Shown here: positions 752 through 63,121 of the stretch, piece by piece | How the letters are laid out: each line of letters opens with the position of its first letter | Position numbering within the stretch: position 1 is the stretch's first letter | Assembly: GCA_048887225.1 (NCBI GenBank) | Contig: JBHLJY010000003.1 | Span: 96,001 to 160,000 of the forward strand | Direction: 5' to 3' | DNA from: Candidatus Hodarchaeota archaeon | GTDB taxonomy: Archaea; Asgardarchaeota; Lokiarchaeia; Sigyniarchaeales; SOKP01 | Length of the DNA stretch: 64,000 nucleotides | The notes under the pieces: generated by a model | Seen by the model: the letters and a program-made list of their open reading frames with translations, nothing else | What the model was told of the DNA's origin: nothing | Databases searched by the model: none | Made by a program: the position numbers and the translations under genes

Positions 752-1726
752 TCAATATATTTTAATTCTTGAAACTAATTCTTTCTTTTTCAATTTTGCT
801 TTTTTATATTCAGCTTTTTTAATCATATAATCTTCATATTTTATTTCAAGATTAGTTTTCTTTTTTGAGGAGTCCTTTTTATTTTTTAAATAGTAGTTTT
901 TTGCCTTCTTATATGCTCTTTTAGCCTTACGAAATTCTCTCTTTATTTCTTTATATAGTTTGTATTTGTTTTTAATTTCACGTCGAGATAACGAGCTTAT
1001 ATCTTTTATGCCAAGTTCTTTTAATTGCTCTTTAAATTTATCTATAGACTCAAATTTTAGGACATTCATACCCAATTGTTTAGCAGGAATGAGATTTTTG
1101 AGTTTATTGTCAATAAAAATGCAATATTTGGGTTTTGTTTTCAATTTTTTTATTACATATTTATATTTTTCTAAATCTGGTTTCCTAAATCCAATTTCGT
1201 TTGATAAAAAAATAAAATCAAATAAATTATAAAATCCTTTAAGCTTATTTGATTTTACATGAACATCAAAAGTATTTGACATTAAGCTAACCGTATATCC
1301 TGCTTTATGTAGTTTTAGGACAATTTCTTCCATGTCCATAGATAAATGGGAAAATTTAGAATATAATTGAAACCATAATTCTAAATAATAGTCCAAGTTA
1401 ACTTTTTTGGCTGGTAAGGGTCCATCATTTTTCTTATTTGGATAATAATATCTCTTAAGAACTTTCTCTATAAAATCACGTGATGTGATTATACCCGCGC
1501 CTAATTGCCTAAACAATTTTCTATAATAAGAATCTTCTGATCGAGGGATTATTATATTTAAATCGTTTTCTATTATATCAAATAGATTCTTAATACTATG
1601 AGTCGGTTTTATGAGTACACCTCCAAAATCAAAAATGAAGTGTTCAATTTCATATAATTTAACTTTTTGAAACCCGAATACTTTTCGAATAATATCTTCT
1701 TCTTGGTCTTGAAAGCTCATTATCAT
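752..1726 (-). CDS. HAD-family phosphatase with Lys-rich C-terminal tail
   Basis: FDFGGVL, MSNT, SNEIGFRKP, FIDNKLKNL motifs; last ~75 aa very K/R-rich. Confidence 0.85.
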   Translation of the reverse strand: MIMSFQDQEEDIIRKVFGFQKVKLYEIEHFIFDFGGVLIKPTHSIKNLFDIIENDLNIIIPRSEDSYYRKLFRQLGAGIITSRDFIEKVLKRYYYPNKKNDGPLPAKKVNLDYYLELWFQLYSKFSHLSMDMEEIVLKLHKAGYTVSLMSNTFDVHVKSNKLKGFYNLFDFIFLSNEIGFRKPDLEKYKYVIKKLKTKPKYCIFIDNKLKNLIPAKQLGMNVLKFESIDKFKEQLKELGIKDISSLSRREIKNKYKLYKEIKREFRKAKRAYKKAKNYYLKNKKDSSKKKTNLEIKYEDYMIKKAEYKKAKLKKKELVSRIKIY

Positions 1727-1759
1727 CTTAAACTAAATCAATTATTTAATAAATATATT

Positions 1760-2551
1760 TTAAATTTCCTTTTTTAATTTTTTAAACTCTCTCAAAATCA
1801 GATTCCCAATTTTAGAAACAGGATCTCCTCCACATTTCCAATTTGTAAACTCTGGAAATGATCCCGGATCAACAACAAACAATTTACCAGTATTTTTTTC
1901 TTTAACAATGTCTAAATGTCCGAATAATAGATTATAACTATTTTTCCATTTTAAAATAATTTCTAGGATATCATTAGGCGTATCTCTTTTTATCATATCA
2001 GAATGTTCATTTTTTAAAGGAAGTTTTTCTAAAGTACATATTTCATTATCAATAAAATAAACAGTATAATGTATGCCTTCAATAAATTTTTCTAAATATA
2101 AAATTTCATCTGAATTTGCTTCAAAATCTCTGAAGGTGTTTATAATTTTAACGCCTCTGCTTCCAGAACTCGTAATTGGCTTTAAAAGTAATGGAAAGTC
2201 GTTTTCTGTAAGATTTTTTATCAGAGCCTTTAATGCTCCGTAATAAATATGTGGATATAATAAACCGGCATTTTTTATTAGTAAATAAGCTTCTAATCTG
2301 TTTCTGTGTTTATAACTAATTTCTGGATTTGGTATAACTGGAATATTATTTGCCTCAATATAATATCCCGCATAGATAAAAGGTATTTGATGTTTAGATT
2401 TTAATATGTATAAATCATTCTCAAGTAATGACTCATCTATGCATAGATTTTCCTTTGTATAGATTTTAACACGATATCCTTTACTTTCATAAAATATTTT
2501 TAATTTCCCGGTAAAATATCCTGTTCTTTTAGATAATATTCCTATTTTCAT
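1760..2551 (-). CDS. ATP-grasp protein (RimK/ITPK1-like, divergent)
   Basis: FPLLLKPITSSGSRGV, LYLEKFIEG, GHLDIV...VVDPGSFPEF. Confidence 0.75.
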   Translation of the reverse strand: MKIGILSKRTGYFTGKLKIFYESKGYRVKIYTKENLCIDESLLENDLYILKSKHQIPFIYAGYYIEANNIPVIPNPEISYKHRNRLEAYLLIKNAGLLYPHIYYGALKALIKNLTENDFPLLLKPITSSGSRGVKIINTFRDFEANSDEILYLEKFIEGIHYTVYFIDNEICTLEKLPLKNEHSDMIKRDTPNDILEIILKWKNSYNLLFGHLDIVKEKNTGKLFVVDPGSFPEFTNWKCGGDPVSKIGNLILREFKKLKKEI

Positions 2552-2564
2552 GTTATAATTCTAT

Positions 2565-3392
2565 TTATTGTTTTTTAGCTTGTTCTATTAAAAATTCCGC
2601 AAATATTTTTGGTCCATTTTCAATATAATTAAAATTTGGCATGGAATTTATGTCTGTTAGATAATAAGTCCCATCTTTTGATTTTAAAAAGTCTAAAGAT
2701 GAAGCCTTAAGGTCTAGAATTTTTATTGCTTTTAATGCGATTTCTTTTAATTCAGAAATCTCTTGGATTTTTCTTCTGGTTTCCATTTTATCTGGGTTTA
2801 CTAAAAATGGAATTTGTTTATAGAAAAACAATTTATCTCCAAAACCATATATTTTATATTCCCACTTACTTTTAACGAATTTCTGGTAATAATAATATTG
2901 ATAATCCTCCTCTCCTCCATTAACTTCTTTAATTGCTCTCTCATCACTGATCTTTAGATGTCCATTTTCTTTTAAAATATTTGGCTTAAAAGTGTATGTT
3001 TTTTCGTCAACTATATTCTTTATAATATAATCTTTAAATGGGGCTTGACAAGTTGAGGGAAATAATGAAAAATCAGGTACACAGATACCAACTTTTCTTA
3101 ATAAAATACTATTTAAAAATCTATGTGATGCTAGCCAAATTGCTTTTGAAGGATTAATTACGGGGATTGAAGTTTCGTTTTCAATCATTCGAGCAAGAGA
3201 AACCAAAAATTTTCCTTTACCCTTAACAAAAAATAGATCTTCGTCAAATTCTAAATTTTTATTTTTAAGTAAGTAAGAATCTTCTACATATAGTTTTACA
3301 TTAGATTTAGATTTTAAATATTTTAATAAATCTGATATTTTATATTTCAAATGAAATTTATCAATAATGATTCCAATTTTTGGTTTTTTCAT
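2565..3392 (-). CDS. ATP-grasp protein, ITPK1-like
   Basis: YYQKFV..EYKIYGFG; SLDFL...YLTDINSMPNF. Confidence 0.75.
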   Translation of the reverse strand: MKKPKIGIIIDKFHLKYKISDLLKYLKSKSNVKLYVEDSYLLKNKNLEFDEDLFFVKGKGKFLVSLARMIENETSIPVINPSKAIWLASHRFLNSILLRKVGICVPDFSLFPSTCQAPFKDYIIKNIVDEKTYTFKPNILKENGHLKISDERAIKEVNGGEEDYQYYYYQKFVKSKWEYKIYGFGDKLFFYKQIPFLVNPDKMETRRKIQEISELKEIALKAIKILDLKASSLDFLKSKDGTYYLTDINSMPNFNYIENGPKIFAEFLIEQAKKQ

Positions 3393-3597
3393 AAATATCT
3401 AAATTATAATCTGATATTAAATACATGAGATTTATTCGATTTAAATGAATATATAATGATTTATATATTATAATTTAGATTAAAAAATTATTTAAGTAAA
3501 GCTGTTTGGCGATTCCCTATATAGATCCCATATATAAATAATAAATAGATTTATAAAGAATGTTTTTTATAAGAAACCAAACTGATGAGATTTTTTT

Positions 3598-4515
3598 ATG
3601 TCTAAAAAAATCATTGTTGGTTCGATCTGTAATCGAGATCTCGAAGTTTTTAACGAGATCAAGAGATTTTCTAAGATTCATTATAGAATAAAGTTTGTTA
3701 ATCTCATAAAAAACGATTCTTCTTTTTCTATCAAATATTTCAAAAAAAAATTGAAAAAATACAATATAGATTTCTTAATTGTTAAATTATATTCAGAGGA
3801 ATCAAATCATAAAGTATATGACGCAATTAAATCATATGCATCTAATATCCCCCGATTGAATAGTTTAAAATCTGTTCAAACATGCGAGAGCCGAAAGGAA
3901 ACATTTAAATTAGTAGAGGAAAAATGCAAAAAACTAAAGATTCCTAAATCTTTTTATTCAATAAACGCTGCGTTTGAAGCAGTATCGAATGGAACGCCTT
4001 TAATTATAAAATTAGATACACATAATATAAGAAATTTATCTAAATATGATCGAATTCTTGGTGTCGCGAAATCTAATGATGATTTCGTTAAGTTAATTAG
4101 AAAATATGATGTAGAGAATAACACTTTATTTTTCCAAGAATATTTAGGTAAACATGATGATATTTATAAAGTGTATGTAATTGATCGTTATGTACAAACA
4201 ATCACATCTCAAAATCTTTTATTACAACATAAGTTTTCCCCTTTAGAATTAGTACACCTTAGAGCACCGATAGAAAAAGAATTTAAAAGACAAATTTTAA
4301 GATTAGGGCGAAAATTTGGTATGACAATCTTCGGTGTTGATTATGTCTTAAAAGATGACATTCCCTATATAGTAGATATTAATGATTTTCCTAGTTTTAG
4401 ATATATCCCCGAGGCTATAAGCATGATATCTGATTATATATACAAGTTCTGTGTTGCGAGACAAACTCTTACTAAGATTCCAATGAGATTAAAAGTAAAA
4501 ACTTATACTATGTAA
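3598..4515 (+). CDS. ATP-grasp protein, ITPK1-like inositol phosphate kinase
   Basis: FFQEYLG..IYKVYVI; IFGVDYV...IVDINDFPSF matches the ITPK1 K-V-Y-V and D-I-N-x-F-P pattern. Confidence 0.75.
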   Translation: MSKKIIVGSICNRDLEVFNEIKRFSKIHYRIKFVNLIKNDSSFSIKYFKKKLKKYNIDFLIVKLYSEESNHKVYDAIKSYASNIPRLNSLKSVQTCESRKETFKLVEEKCKKLKIPKSFYSINAAFEAVSNGTPLIIKLDTHNIRNLSKYDRILGVAKSNDDFVKLIRKYDVENNTLFFQEYLGKHDDIYKVYVIDRYVQTITSQNLLLQHKFSPLELVHLRAPIEKEFKRQILRLGRKFGMTIFGVDYVLKDDIPYIVDINDFPSFRYIPEAISMISDYIYKFCVARQTLTKIPMRLKVKTYTM

Positions 4516-4542
4516 GAATAGCAATACAATTAAATTCTTATA

Positions 4543-5634
4543 TTATCGCGATCTTTTTCCTTGGATAAATCTTACAAGGCGTCGTTTCGCCCTAAAATCT
4601 TGGAGCTGTTTTGGAGGGTGTTTCATAAAAAAAGAACTTGCTGAATGTAATACGCCTCCAATCTGTCGATCTTTAGCTATTTTTGATATTCGAATGCAAT
4701 CTGCAATAATACCTGCTGAATTATTCCCGTCTTCAACAAACATGGTGATATCTACTCTGACAGGAGCGCCTCCAAAAATACGTCCTTCTAATCTCATATA
4801 TGCTTCTTTTTGATTTTTTAAGAATGGAATATAATCAACAGCAGAAATTTGACATTCAACAGTATCTTTATTTTGTAACTTAGCAACGACTGCCTCAGTT
4901 TTGGATTGGCGTTTTCCTTCTTCATAAATTAGCTCCCCGTTCGGTTTAGGTGTTAGAAGGTTCAAGAAATCGCTACATCCGCCCCAATCAAGCTGTATTG
5001 TTCTATCCAATATCGCTCCACGCATTGGAAAAAGATTTGCTAAAGCTCTATGAATAATTGTCGCACCAACCTGAGATTTCACATCGTCTCCAATTAAAGA
5101 AAGTCTTAATTCTTCTGCTTTTTGGACTATTTCTGGATCTTTCGCTACATTTGATGGTATTCCACACACAATACAGGCTCCTGCATCAAGAGCAGCCATT
5201 GCATAAAATTTCACAGCTCTATGGGCCCCAGTTGGTAGAAGAATTACAGCGACATCAACACTTCGTTCTCTTATTTCTCTAGCAATATCAGCTTCTTTTT
5301 GGTTATTATCAACAGGCACAATATTCTTTATGTTGCTATCCAAACCATCCATTATAGGACCTTTAATGACTGGAGCATTTAGAAAATCTGGACGATATAG
5401 TTCCATATTACAATTTGGTTCAGCAAATATGGCTTCACTAAGATCTTTTCCAACTTTGTTTGCGTTGACTTCTATGCCCAATACAAAACTTATATCATTG
5501 ATGCTATATTGTATTATTTCTGGTAGAATTCCTATAATTTTATCTGGATTTCTTTTATAGTTTTCGATTCCTTGGACAAGAGCAGATGCAACATCTCCAA
5601 TCCCTATCAGACAAACATTAATTTTATTTGTCAT
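4543..5634 (-). CDS. ino1: myo-inositol-1-phosphate synthase
   Basis: GIGDVASALVQG, GDDVKSQVGATIIHR, GGCSDFLNL, SKTEAV, NSAG, FFMKHPP. Confidence 0.9.
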   Translation of the reverse strand: MTNKINVCLIGIGDVASALVQGIENYKRNPDKIIGILPEIIQYSINDISFVLGIEVNANKVGKDLSEAIFAEPNCNMELYRPDFLNAPVIKGPIMDGLDSNIKNIVPVDNNQKEADIAREIRERSVDVAVILLPTGAHRAVKFYAMAALDAGACIVCGIPSNVAKDPEIVQKAEELRLSLIGDDVKSQVGATIIHRALANLFPMRGAILDRTIQLDWGGCSDFLNLLTPKPNGELIYEEGKRQSKTEAVVAKLQNKDTVECQISAVDYIPFLKNQKEAYMRLEGRIFGGAPVRVDITMFVEDGNNSAGIIADCIRISKIAKDRQIGGVLHSASSFFMKHPPKQLQDFRAKRRLVRFIQGKRSR

Positions 5635-47253: not shown

Positions 47254-48297
47254 ATGGTTATAGAAGATTTGAAAGCATTATTTACTAGTAAAGAAAATAG
47301 AATTATTCTAATTCTAACTATTTGGTTAATTATCGGATTCACAATTTTTTCATTTCCACAATTTTTTTCAGTAGATGTTGGAAATCTTATATTTCCCCCT
47401 CTTTTAGGTTTTTGTTTTGCTTTTTTTGTTGTATCTCTGGTGACTCGAAAAGATATAAGAGGATTAAATTGGAAATGGCTTTTTTTAGCAATAGGTATAG
47501 GTTTTGCGATAGCTTTTTTATTTACAGGAATTTGGAGATTTATTGTATTTGGCCTCTATCGATTTGGAATTATTTCCTATGTCTTTATAACGGCTATCTT
47601 CTATATGTATGCTTGCTACAAATATGCATTTAAAGCAGACGAGAAAGCATATAAATTGGAGAAACCAAAAAACCATCTTTTAAGATGGACAATGTTTATC
47701 GGGGGGACTCTAGTAGCACTAGTCTTAACTCGCCTTATTGCCATAATTGGAGTAAGATGGGCTAGAAGATCACCTGAAATTGTAAAGGGTATTGGTTTAA
47801 TTGCGATTATCATTTATTGGATAATAATTACTTTAGCTATTATTGGGGTTTTGACTTTAATTGTTAAGCGATTGAATTCCTGGCTAGGTGTATTTTTTTT
47901 ACTTGTAACATTGTTCACCGCTTTTCTAATGTTTAATGCTTATTATGCATTAGGTTCTAGCAGGGATACGACTTACGGTTTATGGATGCAAATTGGGCTA
48001 TATCTTTTTGATTTAGGTTTGATAATTTATACAATTTCAACTATTATTGGAGAAAAATCCGAAAAAATCAGTGAAAAACTAAAAATTATGAAAGTCGATG
48101 CTATAATTATGTGGCTGATATTTTCCAAGGCAGCCTATGAACTTGCTGTTGTAGCAGATCCAAATATACCGGCAGATCTTATAAACGCAGTATTAGGATT
48201 TCTCCTATTTATTCCATTATTAGCTATTGCAGGTATTTATGGAATCATTAACTATGGTAAAGTCAAGAGGGAGAAAGAATCCATACAAAATCAATAG
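47254..48297 (+). CDS. uncharacterised multipass membrane protein, paralog 2 of 4
   Basis: DAIIMWLIFSKAAYE. Confidence 0.8.
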   Translation: MVIEDLKALFTSKENRIILILTIWLIIGFTIFSFPQFFSVDVGNLIFPPLLGFCFAFFVVSLVTRKDIRGLNWKWLFLAIGIGFAIAFLFTGIWRFIVFGLYRFGIISYVFITAIFYMYACYKYAFKADEKAYKLEKPKNHLLRWTMFIGGTLVALVLTRLIAIIGVRWARRSPEIVKGIGLIAIIIYWIIITLAIIGVLTLIVKRLNSWLGVFFLLVTLFTAFLMFNAYYALGSSRDTTYGLWMQIGLYLFDLGLIIYTISTIIGEKSEKISEKLKIMKVDAIIMWLIFSKAAYELAVVADPNIPADLINAVLGFLLFIPLLAIAGIYGIINYGKVKREKESIQNQ

Positions 48298-48388
48298 ATT
48301 CTAAAAAAATCGCAAATATTAAAAACTCTAATTTTTTCTTATTTTCTATCGTTTTGTTAAAAATTTTTACAACTAAAGGTGAGAATTT

Positions 48389-49429
48389 TTGGTATTTAGC
48401 GAACTCAAAAAATTATTTACACAAAAAGAATATAGATTATTTCTAGTATTAGTTCTTTGGCTCTTAATCGGTTTTACAATATTTCAGTTTAAATTTTTTA
48501 TTCCCATATGGTTAGGGTACGTGATCTTTTTACCATTGTTGGTATTATGCGCTATACTTTATATAATGTCATTAATTTTTCGAACCGATTTAAAAGAATT
48601 GACTCTTAAGAGAATAATTATTTATTGTGTCATTGCTGCTGTGATTCTAGTTATTTTTATTTCCCTTGCTGCTGCGATTTTCTTATTGCTTTTTGTATTG
48701 GCTTTAATTTCATATGTACTTATTACTGCTACATTCTATATGTATTCCTGTTATCGATATGGGGTCGATTTGGATGAAAAAATCAGTAAAGTTGAAGGAG
48801 CTGGGAGAAGTATATTGAGAGGGGTAATGTTCCTTGGAGGTACTATTATTTCTCTTATAATTATGATTATTATTGTTGGTATAGGAATATATTGGGGAAC
48901 AACAACTGGAGAGGTTCAATTTTCATTTGGCGGGATGGCTATCGTGATGATGGTTATTATGATTTTTCTATTGTCTGTAGGAATCATATCATTATTTAGA
49001 GGTAAATTAAATGCTTGGCTAGGTATTTTCTTCTTATTTGTTAGTTTTTATTTCATATATTTAATGATTAGCGCATATTACATAATAACATCCAGTGGCG
49101 ACACTACTTATGATTTAGGAACGCAAATTGCTCTATATGTTTTTGATGTTTTACTCATAATCTATACTACTACAACGTTAATGGGGATTAAAACTGAGGT
49201 ATTGAGCGAAAAGCTCAAATTTATTAAACCAGATGGTGTATTAATGTGGTTAATATTTTCTAAAGCAACTTACGAATTTGCCAAGGCAGGTTTAGAAAAT
49301 ATAAATATCGGCGTTTTTAATGCCATAGCTGGACTATTGGTCTTCGTTGTGTTATTCTTTATGGCTGGTTTGTATGGAATTATTTCATATGGGAAAAGAA
49401 AAGAAGAATTTATAGAATCAGAAGATTAA
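48389..49429 (+). CDS. uncharacterised multipass membrane protein, paralog 3 of 4
   Basis: DGVLMWLIFSKATYE; AGGTGA SD before TTG. Confidence 0.8.
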   Translation: MVFSELKKLFTQKEYRLFLVLVLWLLIGFTIFQFKFFIPIWLGYVIFLPLLVLCAILYIMSLIFRTDLKELTLKRIIIYCVIAAVILVIFISLAAAIFLLLFVLALISYVLITATFYMYSCYRYGVDLDEKISKVEGAGRSILRGVMFLGGTIISLIIMIIIVGIGIYWGTTTGEVQFSFGGMAIVMMVIMIFLLSVGIISLFRGKLNAWLGIFFLFVSFYFIYLMISAYYIITSSGDTTYDLGTQIALYVFDVLLIIYTTTTLMGIKTEVLSEKLKFIKPDGVLMWLIFSKATYEFAKAGLENINIGVFNAIAGLLVFVVLFFMAGLYGIISYGKRKEEFIESED

Positions 49430-49511
49430 ATAAAATCTTAATAAATTATCTTTTTTTTTTACTTTTTTTTAATTGACAAATTTTAAATAATTCCTGTTTG
49501 ATTAAGTTTTT

Positions 49512-50771
49512 ATGGAATTTATTAATAATCTTAAAAAGTTAAGTGAAGAAGAAAACAGAGTATTCTTATTTTTAGTAATATGGCTCCTAATCGCTTTTAT
49601 TTGTATGGCGATATTTAACCTTATTAATTTACCGATAATAGGAATTGTCATCTATTACCCATTACTAGGATTTGCGCTTTTTCTTTGGTTTATTTCTTTA
49701 TATAGAAAAAAAATAAGGGACATCTCGACTAAAAAATTAATACTATTACTTACAATTGATATTTTTCTGATGGTAATTTTATTGTTTGTTGTTGTAATAA
49801 TATTAATAATATCTATTTTTTCTTATATCGTCCTAACAAGCTATTTTATATTGCAAGGATGTTACTCCGCTGGCAAAAGACTTGACGAGAAATTATACTA
49901 TAAAAAAGGAGCTTGGTTATGGAGGCGTCTAGAATATCATGGAGGTTTAGCTGTTTCTCTTATTCTATTATTTATTTTTTTAATAGCAACTTGGACTGCT
50001 GCAATACAAACTGGCGTAACAGTATTAATTATTATTGCATATTTAGCGGTTATCATAGTTATTATTAGTGTTGCTATTTATGGTGTTTTTATATCATTAA
50101 TCAAAAAGAGATTAAATGGGTGGCTTGGTACATATTTTATAATTGTTACAGGATACACATTCTATTTAGTTTTAAAGGTATTTATGGGATTATATAGTGG
50201 ATCTAAGAGTGAATCTCCACTTTATATGGAAATAGCTTTAATAATTTTAGATGTTGTTATTCTTTTATATTCTATAGGCTCAATCCTAGGGACTAAAGGA
50301 GAGATATTAGCTGAAAAAATAAAAATCTTTAATATTGATTCAGCGCTACTTTGGTTAATCTTCTCTAAGGCAGCATTGGAATTCGCAATAAATTATCCTT
50401 ATGGTATTTTCGGGGGCCCTCAAGCATTGGGCATTCAAGAAGTCCGACAATTAGGTGCCTATATCAATTTAATTGCAAATATACTTATTTTAGCTATATT
50501 CTTCTTTTCGATCATAATTTTTGGATTCTACGGAATAAGCAAATATAGCGAAGAAAAAGAAATGATGAAAGCAACAAGAAAAGAAATGAAGGCAAGTAAA
50601 TCTGGAAAGAGAGAAGAAGTTGAGATAAAATTCAATGATGAAATGTATAAAATTAAAGAGGAATATATTGATGATTATGAGAGGACAGTCGAAAAATCCG
50701 AAGTTGAAGATGAATTAGCTGAAGAAAAATCAGATGCAAAAGATATAGATAACGAAGATATAAATATTTAA
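49512..50771 (+). CDS. uncharacterised multipass membrane protein, paralog 4 of 4, with acidic C-tail
   Basis: DSALLWLIFSKAALE; charged ~75-aa tail. Confidence 0.8.
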   Translation: MEFINNLKKLSEEENRVFLFLVIWLLIAFICMAIFNLINLPIIGIVIYYPLLGFALFLWFISLYRKKIRDISTKKLILLLTIDIFLMVILLFVVVIILIISIFSYIVLTSYFILQGCYSAGKRLDEKLYYKKGAWLWRRLEYHGGLAVSLILLFIFLIATWTAAIQTGVTVLIIIAYLAVIIVIISVAIYGVFISLIKKRLNGWLGTYFIIVTGYTFYLVLKVFMGLYSGSKSESPLYMEIALIILDVVILLYSIGSILGTKGEILAEKIKIFNIDSALLWLIFSKAALEFAINYPYGIFGGPQALGIQEVRQLGAYINLIANILILAIFFFSIIIFGFYGISKYSEEKEMMKATRKEMKASKSGKREEVEIKFNDEMYKIKEEYIDDYERTVEKSEVEDELAEEKSDAKDIDNEDINI

Positions 50772-55711: not shown

Positions 55712-56491
55712 TTAATCCCTATCAAATCCTTTCTTTCCTTTTGTTATAGCTTTTTTAGCAACTTTTTTAGCAATATTAGCAGGATCCGCTAATTTTTGTA
55801 TCCCCTGTACAGCTGCGTCACCAGCTTGACCAATTACATCCCCAGTAATAGTACCACCTCCCATAAGCTCCGCAGCTACAACTCCCCCTGCTGGTGTTAA
55901 TGCTGCTGATACTATCATTGTAACCGCTGCAACAGCCACGACTTTAGCAATTTTCTGAGAGGTTGGATGATCTGCTCCTTTCTTGTCCTTTACATCCTCT
56001 CCAACAGCTTCTAGTGCTCTCTTCAATCCTTTTATTAAAGCATTTAAAGCGTCTTCTTTTTTCTCTTCCTTTCCTTTATGAAAAACCCCTTCCTTATAAG
56101 CGTATTCTAGAAACTTAGTTAAAGATTTAAACTTCTTGACTTTTTTATATCCATTCCAATCATCTTCTTTAAAGTTTTTAAGCGCATTTTTAATAGGTCT
56201 ACCTTTATCAACTTGAAACATATATAGATAAGGTTCCTTTTTATCATCTAAATATACGGCTTCATAAATCCAATCTCCAGGTTCTTTGTCTTCTCCAATT
56301 AATATTCTAAAATTTATTTTGTTTGTTTTACCAACTAATCCTTTTGAGAATTTAACCATCGCTACTTCATCTCTTCGAGCCCCTTTAATCTTTTCCGCAA
56401 TCTCATCGGACCTCTTCTCGTCGAAAAAATCATTAAGGGCATCCCAGCCTTCTTCAAATACCTTTTTTGCTATCTTAACTTCTTTTTCCAA
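55712..56491 (-). CDS. hypothetical protein with Ala/Gly-rich hydrophobic C-terminal segment
   Basis: Long ORF; AGTGA SD before TTG; VVAVAAVTMIVSAALTPAGGVVAA. Confidence 0.7.
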   Translation of the reverse strand: MEKEVKIAKKVFEEGWDALNDFFDEKRSDEIAEKIKGARRDEVAMVKFSKGLVGKTNKINFRILIGEDKEPGDWIYEAVYLDDKKEPYLYMFQVDKGRPIKNALKNFKEDDWNGYKKVKKFKSLTKFLEYAYKEGVFHKGKEEKKEDALNALIKGLKRALEAVGEDVKDKKGADHPTSQKIAKVVAVAAVTMIVSAALTPAGGVVAAELMGGGTITGDVIGQAGDAAVQGIQKLADPANIAKKVAKKAITKGKKGFDRD

Positions 56492-56663: not shown

Positions 56664-57026
56664 TTGATTCAGATGAGTGAAAAGATATCTAATATTTTAG
56701 AATCCCTTAAAGCGATAAAAGGTGTACACGGAGCTGCCTTAATCGAAAAGTTTGGGTTAATTAAAGGTAGCGCTTTGCCTGGTTGGGTGGACCCTGAAGC
56801 AGTGGCGGCAATGGTAACACTTATTTTGAAAGCCTCTCAAAGAGCAACTAAAGAATTAGAACAGGGAGTTTTTAAAAATGCGACAATTGAGAGTGAAAAG
56901 GGTAAAATTCTCTTTTCAGAAGTTAAGGGTAATATAATTACAATTATTACAACTACAGATTGCAAATTAGGAATCGTAAATTTAAAGTTATCAGCAGCGA
57001 GTTCCGCTTTAGAAAGTATGTTATAA
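56664..57026 (+). CDS. Roadblock/LC7 domain protein
   Basis: GVHGAALIEKFGL..S, AVAAM, ELEQG, IESEKGKI, KLGIV; ATG at 56673 likely. Confidence 0.85.
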   Translation: MIQMSEKISNILESLKAIKGVHGAALIEKFGLIKGSALPGWVDPEAVAAMVTLILKASQRATKELEQGVFKNATIESEKGKILFSEVKGNIITIITTTDCKLGIVNLKLSAASSALESML

Positions 57027-57053: not shown

Positions 57054-58514
57054 TTAAACAAATTCTTTTAATAATTTATCCAAAATATCATTTGCTAGTT
57101 CGGGATCTGCTTGTCCTTTTGTTTCCTTCATTATCTTTCCTACTAATGCCATTTTCGCTTTAGGATTTTTGCGATAATCTTCTATTATTTTTGGATTCCC
57201 TTCTATAACGTTCCTACATAAATCTTCTAAAAATTTCTCATCAGCTATTCTTACTTTCCCGCTTTTTTTGATGATAGTTGATATAGGAATTCCTTTCATC
57301 ATCTCATCAATATAAGTTTTTGCAATCTTTGTTGTAATTTTCCCTACTTTAATTAAATTAATTAAATCTACAACTTGCTTCGGTTTTAAGCTGGTTTCTT
57401 TGATCTGTTTATTATTCTCATTCAGCCAACGGGCGACATCATTCATTACCCAATTACAATATAATTTATAATCTTCTTGCTCAAAATTTTTATCAATCTG
57501 AACCCCCTCTTCATAGAAATCTGCAATATTCTTATCGAGAACTAATAAATCAGCATCAAATTCAGAAAGATGATATGCTTCTTGAAGTCTTTTTGATCTA
57601 GCCATTGGCATTTCGGGCATCTGTTTTTTGACGTTTTCAATGAACTCATCATCTAATTCAATTTTCGGTAAGTCTTGTTCTGGATAATATCGATAATCTT
57701 CTTCAAATTCCTTTTTTCTCATTTCGACGGTGATACGTCTTTTTTCATCCCAACCACGTGTCTCTTGAATGAGCGCTTTTCCTCTTTCTATCATTTGTCG
57801 ATGTCTTCTGATTTCCCATTTCAGTGCTCTTTCTACTTCCTTAAAACTATTAATATTTTTTACCTCAACACGGGCGCTCCCTTTAATGGAGATATTTGCA
57901 TCCACTCTGCATGTTCCCTCTATATTTAAATCCGAAATCCCGGTATATTGAATGATACTTTTTAATTGGTTGAGATATTCTCTCGCTTCTTCTGGTGACC
58001 TTATGACGGGGTCGGTAACAATTTCTATTAGAGCGATTCCAGAACGGTTATAATCGACTAAGGTATAAGGCGAAATAGTTATACTCCCTTTATGTACAAG
58101 TCGAGCAGGATCCTCTTCTAGATGAATTCGATTCAGTTTGATATTCTTTTTGATGCCATTAATTTTTATAGGAACAATCCCACCATCCGCAAACGCATTT
58201 CCTCCTAATTTATTATAGAGTGTTAATTGAAAGTTCCTTGCCATATCGGGGTAATAATATTGCTTTCTAAAGAAGAAAATAGATTTATTTATTTTGCATT
58301 CTAAAGCTAACGCCAAACGAGTTGCGAACTCAAGAGCTCTTTTATTTATTAAGGGGAGTATACCTGGGAAGCCAAGACATCCGGGACAAACATACGTATT
58401 TGGTTCTTTTCCGTAATAATCGCTATTACAACCGCAGAAAAATTTAGTTTTTAAATTTGATAATTGAATGTGGGTTTCCAAACCAATAATTACATCCTCA
58501 TAATTTTCAGTCAT
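57054..58514 (-). CDS. gatB: Asp/Glu-tRNA amidotransferase subunit B, divergent copy
   Basis: IGLETH, RKQYYYPD, HLEED, DYNRSG, RVDANIS, EVKN, DYRYYPE, YqeY-like tail. Confidence 0.92.
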   Translation of the reverse strand: MTENYEDVIIGLETHIQLSNLKTKFFCGCNSDYYGKEPNTYVCPGCLGFPGILPLINKRALEFATRLALALECKINKSIFFFRKQYYYPDMARNFQLTLYNKLGGNAFADGGIVPIKINGIKKNIKLNRIHLEEDPARLVHKGSITISPYTLVDYNRSGIALIEIVTDPVIRSPEEAREYLNQLKSIIQYTGISDLNIEGTCRVDANISIKGSARVEVKNINSFKEVERALKWEIRRHRQMIERGKALIQETRGWDEKRRITVEMRKKEFEEDYRYYPEQDLPKIELDDEFIENVKKQMPEMPMARSKRLQEAYHLSEFDADLLVLDKNIADFYEEGVQIDKNFEQEDYKLYCNWVMNDVARWLNENNKQIKETSLKPKQVVDLINLIKVGKITTKIAKTYIDEMMKGIPISTIIKKSGKVRIADEKFLEDLCRNVIEGNPKIIEDYRKNPKAKMALVGKIMKETKGQADPELANDILDKLLKEFV

Positions 58515-58524
58515 ACAAAAATCC

Positions 58525-60000
58525 TCAATTTTTAATTGCAGGCATTTTTCTAAATATATTTAATTCTTGTTCGAGTAAATAACCAATATTTAGTATTGAT
58601 TTTTCATCCAAATAATTCCCTATTATCTGTATACCGATGGGGAGCTGTTTCTTATCAAACCCGCAGGGTATAGATAATGCTGGCAAACCTGAAAGGTTCG
58701 CAGGACAAGTTAAGCTGTTCATATCATACATTTTTAAAGGTTGATCTATTAATTCGTTAATTTTAAATGCTGTTTTTGGCATTGTAGGAGAGATCAACGC
58801 ATTACATTGTTTCAGAGCATTTTGAATATCATTTTTAATCAATGTCCTAACTTTTTGGGCTTTAATATAAAAAGGCTTGTAATATTTTTTGGTCAATAAA
58901 TAAGTCCCTAACAATGATCTTCTTTTAGCTTCTATACCAAGTTTTTCTCCTCGTGTTTTGCTATATACCTCAAAAACATCTTTTGTTTGATCAAAAAACA
59001 ACATCTTACCGTATCTTAAACCATCAAATTTTGCGATATTTGATGCTTCTTCACTAAGCGCAATTAAAAAATATGCGGGTAAAGCAAATTGGAAATTAGG
59101 AAAGGAGATCTCCAGAAATTCTATCCCCAAATTTTCTAGCTTCTTAATAGCTTTAAATACGACTTCTTTGGTTGAAGGATCAATGTCACCATTAAAAAAT
59201 TCTTTAGGAATTCCAACTATTTTGTTTTCAATACTCTCCTCCAAAAAATCGAAGTAGTTTTCAATTTTTTCATGTAGGGTAGTTGGATCTAATGAGTCGC
59301 GTCCTGCTATGATTTGAAGTAATAACGCACAATCTTTAACACATTTAGTAATTGGACCTATTTGTTCAAGAGAATTTCCATAAGAAGCTAATCCGAATTT
59401 TGATACTAAACCCGTTGTAGGTTTTAATCCAACAACACCACAAAACGAAGCAGTACATCGTATGCTCCCGCCAATATCACTACCGAGAGCAAAAATTGTT
59501 TGTTTCGACGCAACTGCGGCTCCCGAACCTCCACTTGCTCCTCCTGGAACATAATCTAAATTCCATGGATTATAAGTCGCAAAATAGCAACTTGTTTCAG
59601 TGGAACATCCCATTCCGAATTCATCCATGTTAGTACTTCCAATAAATATAGCTGAATCTTTTTCAACTAATTTCTCGATTACAGTTGCGTTAAATGGGGG
59701 AATATAACCTTCTAAAATTTTTGAAGCACAAGTAGTAGGATAGTTTTTAACACAAATACCATCATCGACAACAAGGGGCAATCCAGATAATCTTCCTTTA
59801 AGTTTTTTTTGCTTTAATTTCTTGTCCAATTCTTTTGCTCTAATCAATGCATTTTCCTTGGTTAAATACACGAAGGAATGTAAATAAGGTTCAGTTTCAT
59901 CAATGATTTTAAAAGTATCCTCAATGATTTCTTGAATTGTTAATTCTTTATTGTTTATTTTTTCCAATAATTCATACCCCATAAGTTCCTGCATTTTCAT
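58525..60000 (-). CDS. gatA: amidotransferase subunit A, divergent copy with degenerate catalytic triad
   Basis: Amidase fold; VVDDG replaces IKD, GGAS replaces GGSS, GGSIR retained. Confidence 0.88.
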   Translation of the reverse strand: MKMQELMGYELLEKINNKELTIQEIIEDTFKIIDETEPYLHSFVYLTKENALIRAKELDKKLKQKKLKGRLSGLPLVVDDGICVKNYPTTCASKILEGYIPPFNATVIEKLVEKDSAIFIGSTNMDEFGMGCSTETSCYFATYNPWNLDYVPGGASGGSGAAVASKQTIFALGSDIGGSIRCTASFCGVVGLKPTTGLVSKFGLASYGNSLEQIGPITKCVKDCALLLQIIAGRDSLDPTTLHEKIENYFDFLEESIENKIVGIPKEFFNGDIDPSTKEVVFKAIKKLENLGIEFLEISFPNFQFALPAYFLIALSEEASNIAKFDGLRYGKMLFFDQTKDVFEVYSKTRGEKLGIEAKRRSLLGTYLLTKKYYKPFYIKAQKVRTLIKNDIQNALKQCNALISPTMPKTAFKINELIDQPLKMYDMNSLTCPANLSGLPALSIPCGFDKKQLPIGIQIIGNYLDEKSILNIGYLLEQELNIFRKMPAIKN

Positions 60001-60183
60001 TAGTATCTAACCGAAATTCATATGATATATATTCTAGAACATTTGTAAAATTAATTTAACTGGTATAATTATGAATTTCTAAAAAATCTCACTAAAATTA
60101 AATCATAACCTATGGGAGTTTTGAAATGTTATAGTCTACAAAAAAGATATAAAATAAGAATAATGGTAAGAGATACTAACTTT

Positions 60184-61638
60184 TTACTTTTTAATAATCC
60201 TTAATATAATTTCCCTTGTTTTTTCTGGATCCAATTGACCTCTGGTTTTTTGCATACATTTTCCTATTAATGCTTCCAACGCTTTAGGATTTTTTTTTAA
60301 ATCCTCAACGATACTTTTATTTTCTTTTATGACATCTCTTACAATTGAAATAATTTTTTCCTCATCGGCGATTCTTTTTTTTCCAGTTTTTTTCATTATT
60401 TCGGAGATGGAGGTTCCTTTCATCATTTCATTGATATATGATTTTGCGATTTTTCCAGTAATCTTTCCTTGCTTGATGAAATTAATCAAATCTATCACTT
60501 GTTTAGGTTTTAACTTAGTTTCTCTTATATGTTTTTTGTTAAAATTTAGCCAGCGCGAGATATCTCCTTTTAACCAATTACAGAATTGTTTATAGTCGTC
60601 TAATTGAAAAGACTTTTGAGATTTTACACCTTCCTCATAGAAGTCGGCAATATCTTTATCTATAACTAGAATTTCTGCATCAAATTCAGACAATCCATAC
60701 TCTTTTTGGAAACGTATAGATCTTGCCTTTGGCATCTCTGGTAATTTATCTTTGATTTCTTTTATGAATTTCTTGTCAATTTCAAAGGGAGGTAGATCTT
60801 GTTCTGGAAAATATCGATAATCCTTTTCAAATTCTTTTGTTCTGAGACCAATAGTTATCCTTCTTTTATCATCCCAATGACGGGTTTCCTGAATTAATTC
60901 TTTACCTCTTTTTAATAAATTCTTTTGTCGCTGAATTTCCCATTTTAACGCTCGCTCAACTTCTTTAAAACTATTTATGTTCTTAACTTCAGATCGTGCA
61001 TGCCCTTTAATTGAAATATTCGCGTCCACACGACAAGACCCCTCTAAATCTAAGTCAGATATGCCTGTATATTGCACAATTGATTTTAATTGTCTTAAAT
61101 ATTCACGAGCCTCCTCAGGAGATTTCATTACAGGGTCAGATACAATTTCTATGAGAGTAACGCCTGAACGATTATAATCAACTAAAGTAAATGGAGATGT
61201 GGCAATCGATCCTTTATGGACTAAGCGCGCAGGATCTTCCTCAAGATGTATCCTATTAAGTTTTAAATCCTTTTTCTTGCCGTCTAATTTTATTGTGATT
61301 TTTCCTCCATCAGCAAAAGCGCTTCCCCCAGCTTTATGAAATTGGGATATTTGGTAGTTTTTCGACATGTCTGGATAGAAGTAATTCTTTCTAAAGAACC
61401 AAAATGATTCATTTATATCACAACCTAATGCTAAAGCCAATCTCGTCGCAAATTCAATAGCCCTCTTATTCACTACAGGTAATGAGCCCGGTAAACCAAG
61501 ACAAATTGGGCAAGTATGAGTATTTGGTCTTGCTCCTCGATAATCGCTATTGCAACTACAAAATAATTTTGTTTTTAAATTTGTGATTTGAATATGGGTT
61601 TCTAATCCTATAATTATGTCCTCATATTTTTTACTCAA
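60184..61638 (-). CDS. gatB: Asp/Glu-tRNA amidotransferase subunit B
   Basis: RKNYFYPD..YQISQ, HLEED, DYNRSG, DYRYFPE. Confidence 0.95.
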   Translation of the reverse strand: MSKKYEDIIIGLETHIQITNLKTKLFCSCNSDYRGARPNTHTCPICLGLPGSLPVVNKRAIEFATRLALALGCDINESFWFFRKNYFYPDMSKNYQISQFHKAGGSAFADGGKITIKLDGKKKDLKLNRIHLEEDPARLVHKGSIATSPFTLVDYNRSGVTLIEIVSDPVMKSPEEAREYLRQLKSIVQYTGISDLDLEGSCRVDANISIKGHARSEVKNINSFKEVERALKWEIQRQKNLLKRGKELIQETRHWDDKRRITIGLRTKEFEKDYRYFPEQDLPPFEIDKKFIKEIKDKLPEMPKARSIRFQKEYGLSEFDAEILVIDKDIADFYEEGVKSQKSFQLDDYKQFCNWLKGDISRWLNFNKKHIRETKLKPKQVIDLINFIKQGKITGKIAKSYINEMMKGTSISEIMKKTGKKRIADEEKIISIVRDVIKENKSIVEDLKKNPKALEALIGKCMQKTRGQLDPEKTREIILRIIKK

Positions 61639-61648
61639 TTCTTTTGCC

Positions 61649-63121
61649 TCATTTTGTAATAGGGGCTAATTTTCTAAAAATATTTAATTTTTGCTCAAGT
61701 AAATAAGCAATATTAAGAATCGTTTTTTCATCAAAATAATTTCCGATAATTTGAAAACCGATAGGTAATCCCTTACCATCAAATCCGCATGGAACTGATA
61801 ATGCTGGTAATCCTGCAAGATTAACGGGACAAGTTAAAATATCCATCATATACATCTGCAATGGGTCGTCTACTAACTCGCCAATTTTAAAGGCGGTTGT
61901 TGGCATTGTTGGGCAGACGATTGCGTCGCACTTCTTAAACGCGTTTTGAAAATCATTCCTAATCAAAGTCCGTACTTTTAGCGCTTTAATATAAAACATG
62001 TCGTAATAACCAGCTGATAAAGCGTACGTCCCTAATATTATTCTTCTTCTTACTTCAGGACCAAATTTTTCTCCACGAGTTTTACTAAATATTTCAAACA
62101 CATCTCCATTTGGAACTTCGGACATTTTTCCATGTCTCAATCCATCATACCTCTCTAAATTAGAACTTGCTTCACTCATTGCTATTAAGTAGTATGTAGG
62201 AATAGTATATTCAAGATGTGGTAATGAAATTTCAATTGTCTTAGCTCCAATACTCTTTAATATATCAATTGATTTATTTACAGAATTTTTAATGGAAGAA
62301 TTTACTCCCTCTCTAAAGAATTCCTTAGGAACGCCAAGAGTTTTATTTTCTATTGGTTTGTTTAATTCTTCAGTATATTTCTCAACTTTAATCTCAACAG
62401 AGGTTGAATCTAATGGATCCTTTCCAGCTATAATTTCCAATAATAATGCACAATCGTAAACACATCTGGTTATTGGCCCAATTTGATCTAAAGAATTTGC
62501 GTAAGAAACTAACCCATATCTCGAAACTCTGCCATATGTTGGTTTTAATCCTACAACTCCGCAATATGATGCTGGACATCTTATACTACCACCAGTGTCA
62601 CTACCTAAAGAAAAAATAACTTGTCCTGAGGCCACACACGATCCTGAACCTCCACTTGAACCTCCAGGTACGTATTCTAGATTCCATGGATTATATGTAG
62701 GACCATAACAGCTATTTTCCGTAGAGGAACCCATAGCAAACTCGTCCATATTTGTACGACCGATGGAGATTGCCCCTCTTTGTTTAATTAATCGTTCGAT
62801 AACTGTCGCATTATAAGGGGGATGATAACCTTCTAAAATTTTTGAACAACATGTTGTTGGATTATCTTTTATACATATGAGGTCCTTTATTGCAATTGGC
62901 ACTCCATACAGTTTCCCGATAGTTTTTCCATTTTTTAATTCTTTATCCTTTTGTTTTGCTTCGCTTATTGCTTTCTCTTTAGATACATGAACAAAAGAAT
63001 GTAAAAGATTATCTGTTTTTTCAATTCTATCAAGATAAAACCGAATAATTTCCTGAATTTGAATTTCTCTATTTTTAACTTTTTCAATTAACTCGTATCC
63101 CATGTATTCAAGGATATTCAT
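61649..63121 (-). CDS. gatA: Asp/Glu-tRNA amidotransferase subunit A
   Basis: PIAIKD, GGSSGGS, GSDTGGSIR, RRIILG, MYMMD intact. Confidence 0.95.
   Translation of the reverse strand: MNILEYMGYELIEKVKNREIQIQEIIRFYLDRIEKTDNLLHSFVHVSKEKAISEAKQKDKELKNGKTIGKLYGVPIAIKDLICIKDNPTTCCSKILEGYHPPYNATVIERLIKQRGAISIGRTNMDEFAMGSSTENSCYGPTYNPWNLEYVPGGSSGGSGSCVASGQVIFSLGSDTGGSIRCPASYCGVVGLKPTYGRVSRYGLVSYANSLDQIGPITRCVYDCALLLEIIAGKDPLDSTSVEIKVEKYTEELNKPIENKTLGVPKEFFREGVNSSIKNSVNKSIDILKSIGAKTIEISLPHLEYTIPTYYLIAMSEASSNLERYDGLRHGKMSEVPNGDVFEIFSKTRGEKFGPEVRRRIILGTYALSAGYYDMFYIKALKVRTLIRNDFQNAFKKCDAIVCPTMPTTAFKIGELVDDPLQMYMMDILTCPVNLAGLPALSVPCGFDGKGLPIGFQIIGNYFDEKTILNIAYLLEQKLNIFRKLAPITK

Follow-up and report, generated by a model that had tools for sequence, protein, structure and literature searches.

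The window, that is, the whole stretch of 64,000 nucleotides analysed here, contains four consecutive genes on the minus strand, in the order gatA1-gatB1-gatA2-gatB2, and a promoter-like motif upstream of the second gatA:

gatA1, 61649..63121, minus strand: canonical glutaminase subunit; TIGR00132 634.8 bits (cut-off 481.1)
gatB1, 60184..61638, minus strand: canonical GatB; TIGR00133 521 bits
promoter-like AT-rich motif, 60066..60098, minus strand: upstream of gatA2, putative promoter
gatA2, 58525..60000, minus strand: full-length GatA paralog without the catalytic Lys; TIGR00132 536.5 bits
gatB2, 57054..58514, minus strand: GatB paralog with Mg, ATP, and transamidase residues and tail domain intact; TIGR00133 491.5 bits

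In GatA1 the Ser-cisSer-Lys triad is whole (K80, S155, and S179), and D427 is also present. The two GatA share 61% identity and the two GatB 67%. Both paralogs passed their family HMMs (cut-offs of 481.1 bits for GatA2 and 314.8 bits for GatB2), and GatA2 has the amidase-signature fold: its AlphaFold model (pLDDT 92) matches S. aureus GatA (2df4_A) with a TM of 0.96, so that the fold is intact. A preliminary description of this DNA had claimed an intact 491-aa open reading frame at 58525-60000, and this was borne out. An assembly artefact or contamination was ruled out, since a single contig of 238 kb carries both pairs, the tandem recurs in independent ENA, JGI, and NCBI assemblies (with the order gatA-gatB-gatA2-gatB2 wherever the contig was long enough), and gatA2 nests within Lokiarchaeia GatA.

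The AT-rich motif was found 40-84 nt before the ATG in 8/8 gatA2 loci examined, and a related motif also precedes gatA1 in most loci; judging from these sequences, the motif before gatA2 is probably a duplicated gatA promoter. A nitrogen regulon acting through it was rejected, since the genome has no strong second match (the next best score was 19 versus 40.5, the latter being inflated by training) and the motif resembles the gatA1 upstream region. A sigma-70 promoter scan gave chance-level results only. A roadblock/LC7 gene and an unassigned 259-aa ORF flank gatB2 (55712-56491, minus strand, and 56664-57026, plus strand); the roadblock gene beside gatB2 is conserved in all loci reaching that far, and the next ORF varies by lineage. 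Elsewhere in the window (47254-50771, plus strand) there are three tandem, seemingly paralogous ORFs for multi-pass membrane proteins (347, 346, and 419 aa).

In the alignment with 2df4_A, positions 79, 155, 428, and 179 of GatA2 correspond to K79, S154, D425, and S178 of S. aureus GatA. The preliminary description had read at these positions the replacement of the catalytic Lys by Asp, of the cis-Ser by Ala, and of the Gln-binding Asp by Asn, with retention of the nucleophile Ser, and the codons agree in every case: GAT at 59766-59764, GCA at 59538-59536 (24 residues before the nucleophile), AAC at 58719-58717, and AGC at 59466-59464. Further changes that it had not listed are T176I, A318E, R201K, and R324K, plus the co-divergence of gatB2. 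The main positions are:

K79D, 59764..59766, minus strand: general base replaced; Asp in five lineages, Glu in two
S155A, 59536..59538, minus strand: cis-Ser; A, S, or G among orthologs
T176I, 59473..59475, minus strand: I or M in five main lineages; Thr in all 196 canonical GatA
S179, 59464..59466, minus strand: nucleophile position; kept in 7/7 lineages
A318E, 59047..59049, minus strand: new acid fixed in five main lineages, with V358A and I362A/S
D428N, 58717..58719, minus strand: glutamine-binding Asp (S. aureus D425; role per PMC4027206)

Canonical proteins are nearly uniform at these sites: Lys79 was found in 116/116 canonical Lokiarchaeia GatA and in 80/80 distant GatA, Asp428 in 196/196 canonical GatA, and Ser155 in 195/196. 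Thirteen otherwise canonical Lokiarchaeia GatA (P0021, P0026, P0031) carry Gly for the near-invariant Asp that follows the catalytic Lys. Relative to S. aureus GatA, GatA2 also has Ile for T175 and Phe for Y310, and it retains R358 and Y309. Its glutamine clamp (S. aureus D425, Y310, R358, and Y309) is thus incomplete, with N428 and F311 changed and R361 and Y310 kept; the D425/Y310 pair is Asn/Phe in the GatA2 of the window and in most main lineages. D425 binds Gln (PMC4027206), and D425 and Y310 form a hydrogen-bond pair in Gln-bound S. aureus GatA (PMC2811023). In amidase-signature catalysis, Ser, cis-Ser, and Lys act as one hydrogen-bonded relay (PMC2330236; PMC11708778), and in GatA2 this triad is broken (D79, A155, and S179). 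From the known triad mechanism we infer that GatA2 would be glutaminase-null; lacking the defining triad, it does not belong among functional glutaminases, although automatic annotation labels proteins of this type as normal GatA.

In the databases, the sequences nearest to GatA2 (76, 69, and 67% identity) resemble it more than any canonical GatA does, share its changes, and bear Promethearchaeota/Lokiarchaeia names. A profile search recovered six 90% clusters holding 40 sequences, which together with a partial sequence (L116) make seven lineages that are 54-88% identical. A search for related loci across genome contigs returned distant GatA only, and an apparent second gatA in genome G010 was discarded because both fragments are canonical. 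GatA2 forms one clade inside Lokiarchaeia GatA (support 100/99), and GatB2 forms one clade as well (100/100). The expectation that the same substitutions would recur in other Lokiarchaeia held for the Lys, which is lost in 7/7 lineages, but not throughout for S155A, which is absent from some lineages (Ser in 2/7); no ortholog retains the triad. On the sequences compared, the change that defines GatA2 is therefore that of Lys to an acid and not S155A: the cis-Ser position drifts (A/S/G), and in one lineage S156 is also replaced. D175, G177, G178, S179, R181, and R361 are kept in 7/7 lineages; since 63/96 universal GatA positions are kept in all GatA2, the retention of S179 alone proves little. 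The basal GatA2 (L124 and P0114) have K79E and retain T176 and D428, and the five main lineages have K79D, T176I/M, A208G, A318E, and R201K, plus D428N where sequenced, indicating that loss of the Lys, through a single-base change to Glu, preceded the remodelling of the pocket. Together these data show a single tandem gatAB duplication in an AsnRS-less Lokiarchaeia lineage, followed by early Lys loss and by later remodelling of the pocket and the GatB interface.

Several of these loci have peculiarities of their own. In a JGI contig (L113:215-1619) gatA1 is split into two ORFs, probably by an assembly error, and it is whole in the sister contig L114. An enoyl-CoA hydratase-family gene lies between gatA1 and gatB1 in L111 (3927-4712), L126 (5605-6390), and L127 (3124-3909); it is missing from the close relative L117, and the gatA1 of the strains with the insertion is 5 aa longer. 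L115 carries an intein-bearing gyrB, plus gyrA, near the gat locus (1391-4648).

All four main GatA2 lineages are changed at 18 conserved positions; the pocket or the predicted GatB interface accounts for 10 of these, compared with 36/231 unchanged positions (Fisher p=2.6e-4, the interface being taken from the complex model); for the pocket alone the figure is 3/18 (p=0.06). The earlier claim that the changes are concentrated in the active site stands as an enrichment there, but changes are also found outside it. GatB2 keeps H15, E133, E164, E13, K84, Q96, R203, and the tail domain, with H15, E133, E164, E13, and N220 invariant. Its fixed changes are R34Y, I97L, Q99L, A103L, H254G, and L265M in 15/15 sequences and K93R in 13/15, and their enrichment at the interface was not significant (p=0.17). 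A separate GatB group outside the GatB2 clade (P0234, P0236, and P0250) has K93R, Q99M, R275K, and F224I at conserved sites. The predicted A2-B2 complex gave an ipSAE of 0.84 (best control 0.00; contact agreement at least 88%; partner pLDDT at least 89), although the model may recall solved GatCAB; solved pairs reached the ipSAE mark in 58/80 cases and mismatched pairs in 2/110. The T176 position of GatA2 is changed in the main lineages and so is the K93 position of GatB; we take these to be T149 and K89 of H. pylori, tunnel residues that couple the active sites, where GatA T149V and GatB K89R reportedly reduce kinase activity.

Selection on the second pair was estimated from well-diverged, unsaturated pairs (NG86). 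The dN/dS of gatA2 was 0.10-0.22 (bootstrap upper bound at most 0.39), that of gatA1 0.05-0.11, and that of gatB2 mostly 0.06-0.20. The gatA2 values are far from 1 and rule out a pseudogene; with the Lys lost in all lineages, they support the earlier reading of neofunctionalisation rather than decay. Constraint on gatA2 is somewhat relaxed but far from neutral, as expected with catalysis lost, and the selected unit is the GatA2-GatB2 pair, not GatA2 alone. Between L116 and L117, dS was 2.5 for gatA1 and 2.8 for the upstream cofE but only 0.30 for gatA2, and third-position identity climbs across the 3' half of gatB1; a smaller-scale pattern of the same kind separates L117 and L126 (dS about 0.25-0.36 in the flanks and 0.013 in gatA2). 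This low gatA2 dS against high flank dS indicates that the second pair has probably been transferred between hosts by homologous recombination. The GatB2-specific motif was found in 0/160 other Lokiarchaeia species genomes. In L114, gatA1 (213-1694) and gatA2 (3509-4975) reach a third-position identity of 0.85 near the 3' end and have K324 and T132 in common, which suggests possible gene conversion between them.

The host genome (G000, 98% complete) encodes one ND-AspRS, one GluRS, gatD, gatE, and one gatC, which lies elsewhere in the genome and not at the gat locus, and no AsnRS was found in it. This is the archaeal Asp-AdT genome pattern (ND-AspRS and GatDE, no AsnRS), and GatCAB is the Asp-AdT in archaea without AsnRS (PMC2811023). 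Formation of Asn-tRNA therefore requires GatCAB in this host, and with an ND-AspRS, no AsnRS, and GatDE serving Gln, Asp-tRNA(Asn) is the likely substrate. The second pair is unlikely to have replaced GatDE: both gatD and gatE are there, and the Thr-Asp and Lys motifs of GatD are retained. Within the family, 83/134 genomes have AsnRS, versus 0/9 congeners. In most family genomes AsnRS and GatCAB coexist, and wherever checked (L013, L024, L028, and others) asnS lies immediately upstream of gatA. No asnS was found in A2B2 loci with visible upstream DNA, as read at the gat locus only for L115, L124, and L125. The gatA1 of each A2B2 host is nearest to the genus of the window, a decisive result in some hosts (82-94%) and a weak one in others (74-78%). 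The link between AsnRS absence and A2B2 carriage is an association only, as kin are not independent. Glutamine synthetase and AsnB homologs are encoded in G000, so glutamine is available; Amt was not found in it and is present in 5/9 congeners. Asn makes up about 6% of the residues in long ORFs. Among the 32 tRNAs found by ARAGORN there was no tRNA-Asn or tRNA-Glu; many tRNAs of this genome are intron-bearing, some with introns apparently at non-canonical positions.

GatA2B2 is a real, conserved, and mobile GatCAB variant, apparently undescribed, whose function we infer from sequence; in the literature on Asgard GatAB paralogs or free-ammonia GatCAB, within the limited coverage of our search, no description of the subfamily was found. 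The best explanation, to which we give a probability of about one half, is that GatA2-GatB2, probably together with the single GatC, amidates Asp-tRNA(Asn) from ammonia and independently of glutamine, GatA2 serving as a non-catalytic scaffold. GatB2 would still phosphorylate Asp-tRNA(Asn) with ATP and would amidate it using free NH3/NH4+; GatA2 would carry out no hydrolysis and would stabilise GatB2, and its emptied pocket may let ammonium in. The acid at 79 and S179 would line the cavity vacated by the lysine. More speculatively, this acid might line an ammonium site, and E318, with the smaller residues at 358 and 362, might neutralise R361. The ATP spent by glutamine synthetase per amide would be skipped, which would benefit a cell short of energy where ammonium is plentiful. 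GatA1B1C would remain the glutamine-fed route, and GatA2B2 need not be essential because the intact pair coexists.

In favour of an ammonia-fed enzyme we count the loss of the Lys in 7/7 lineages, the drifting cis-Ser, the loss of S156 in one lineage, the altered glutamine clamp pair, the retained catalytic residues of GatB2, the low dN/dS, the genomic setting (ND-AspRS and GatDE, with no AsnRS found), and the A2-B2 complex model with its caveat; that Amt was not found in the host is weak support. It also speaks for such an enzyme that AdTs accept NH4Cl in vitro and that a damaged yeast GatA scaffold gives more NH4Cl-driven transamidation (PMC4027206). Against it stands the retention of S179, R361, the oxyanion loop, and an invariably acidic position 79, a pattern also compatible with a remodelled hydrolase; so do the availability of glutamine in the host, the kinase drop said to occur in H. 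pylori T149V and K89R, and the fact that no tRNA-Asn was located. We also count against it that canonical AdTs already take ammonium, so that the advantage of a special copy is an assumption. A tentative extension is that the dead glutaminase pocket was rebuilt (acid at 79, E318, and retuned interface) as the dedicated ammonium or small-amine entry site of a horizontally spreading Asgard AdT, in which case Asn-codon translation would be coupled directly to environmental ammonium.

The retained residues just mentioned are the core of the first alternative, which we consider unlikely: GatA2 would be a hydrolase for another donor of nitrogen, one that is more labile, carries an anion, and lacks an alpha-amino group (carbamoyl phosphate, carbamate, or 2-oxoglutaramate, for example), S179 being activated through water by the acid at 79 and ammonia being passed to GatB2. 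This would suit the retention of S179, D175, G177, G178, R181, and R361 in 7/7 lineages and the acid always found at position 79; D428N removes the partner of the substrate amino group while the carboxylate-binding Arg stays, and FAAH Lys-to-Glu mutants reportedly retain some activity. The cis-Ser relay is nevertheless unconstrained (A/S/G); in amidase-signature catalysis Lys, cis-Ser, and nucleophile make up a single chain (PMC11708778). Besides, no donor-producing gene is conserved beside the locus, and in the basal lineages the Lys was gone before D428 changed.

A regulatory role is improbable. GatA2B2 would bind Asp-tRNA(Asn), GatC, or ND-AspRS and make little Asn-tRNA, so that mischarged tRNA would be tuned, stored, or destroyed and Asn-to-Asp mistranslation adjusted or nitrogen sensed. 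One gatC for two GatAB pairs and the promoter-like motif of gatA2 itself would suit such a role, as would the control of mistranslation in mycobacteria by GatCAB stability (PMC8406222) and the non-enzymatic role of Toc64, a catalytically dead amidase-fold protein (PMC2174300). It does not explain why GatB2 retains all of its catalytic residues under purifying selection similar in strength to that on GatB1, and the change in the ligand pocket is not what one would expect of a glutamine sensor.

Still more doubtful is that GatA2 has kept a genuine, if slow, glutaminase/asparaginase activity or is a duplicate that is slowly decaying. The roughly twofold higher dN/dS of gatA2 over gatA1 (0.10-0.22 vs 0.05-0.11), the lack of a second copy in the 160 other Lokiarchaeia genomes, and the cis-Ser retained in part of the lineages could be read in this way, but in every DNA copy read the frame has stayed open over divergences at which synonymous sites are saturated, the lineages have fixed identical non-canonical residues, and the horizontal spread is recent. 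Least probable is the joining of a non-ammonia amine to Asp- or Glu-tRNA, or to another acceptor, to give a non-standard product: both subunits changed together, and K93R, I97L, Q99L, and A103L of GatB2 adjoin the conserved K84-Q96 segment and lie at the predicted A-B interface. However, no tailoring gene, unusual tRNA, or dedicated synthetase was seen at the locus or in the tRNA set of the genome, an ordinary single-copy GatB group (P0234) likewise departs from Q99 (with Met), and GatB1 and GatB2 do not differ in the length of the 3-10-turn region, which is the archaeal one.

In the limited literature available, the tRNA-dependent amidotransferases described obtain nitrogen from Gln or Asn with a glutaminase subunit that is intact. 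A mobile GatAB pair that is under selection and lacks the catalytic Lys would offer a natural test of the GatA-GatB tunnel and inter-site coupling, and of whether aminoacyl-tRNA can be amidated in vivo with free ammonia, the intact twin in the same genome being the control. The ammonia-fed reading suggests an energy-saving adaptation of Asgard translation.

Among known systems, S. aureus GatCAB (2df4) resembles GatA2B2 in the GatA fold (43% identity), the gatA-gatB order, the kinase/transamidase site and tail of GatB, and the predicted A-B interface. GatA2B2 differs from canonical GatCAB in that GatA2 lacks the catalytic Lys, has a drifting cis-Ser, an altered glutamine clamp, and a co-varied interface, and forms part of a second pair beside an intact one. 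The behaviour proposed for GatA2B2 is that of yeast GatFAB N-terminal truncation mutants (PMC4027206), in which glutaminase activity is reduced and NH4Cl use is better; those changes are engineered, affect the small subunit, and leave the triad intact, whereas the change in GatA2 is natural and lies in the active site. Toc64 (PMC2174300) is likewise an amidase-signature protein kept after losing a catalytic residue, but there it is the Ser that is lost, membrane and TPR parts were added, and its function in protein import is unrelated to GatA2. NAD synthetases (PMC3376133) also carry out one amidation in ammonia-fed and glutamine-fed forms, sometimes in the same genome and with gene transfer; in the ammonia-fed NAD synthetase the glutaminase domain is wholly absent, whereas GatA2B2 keeps a dead one.
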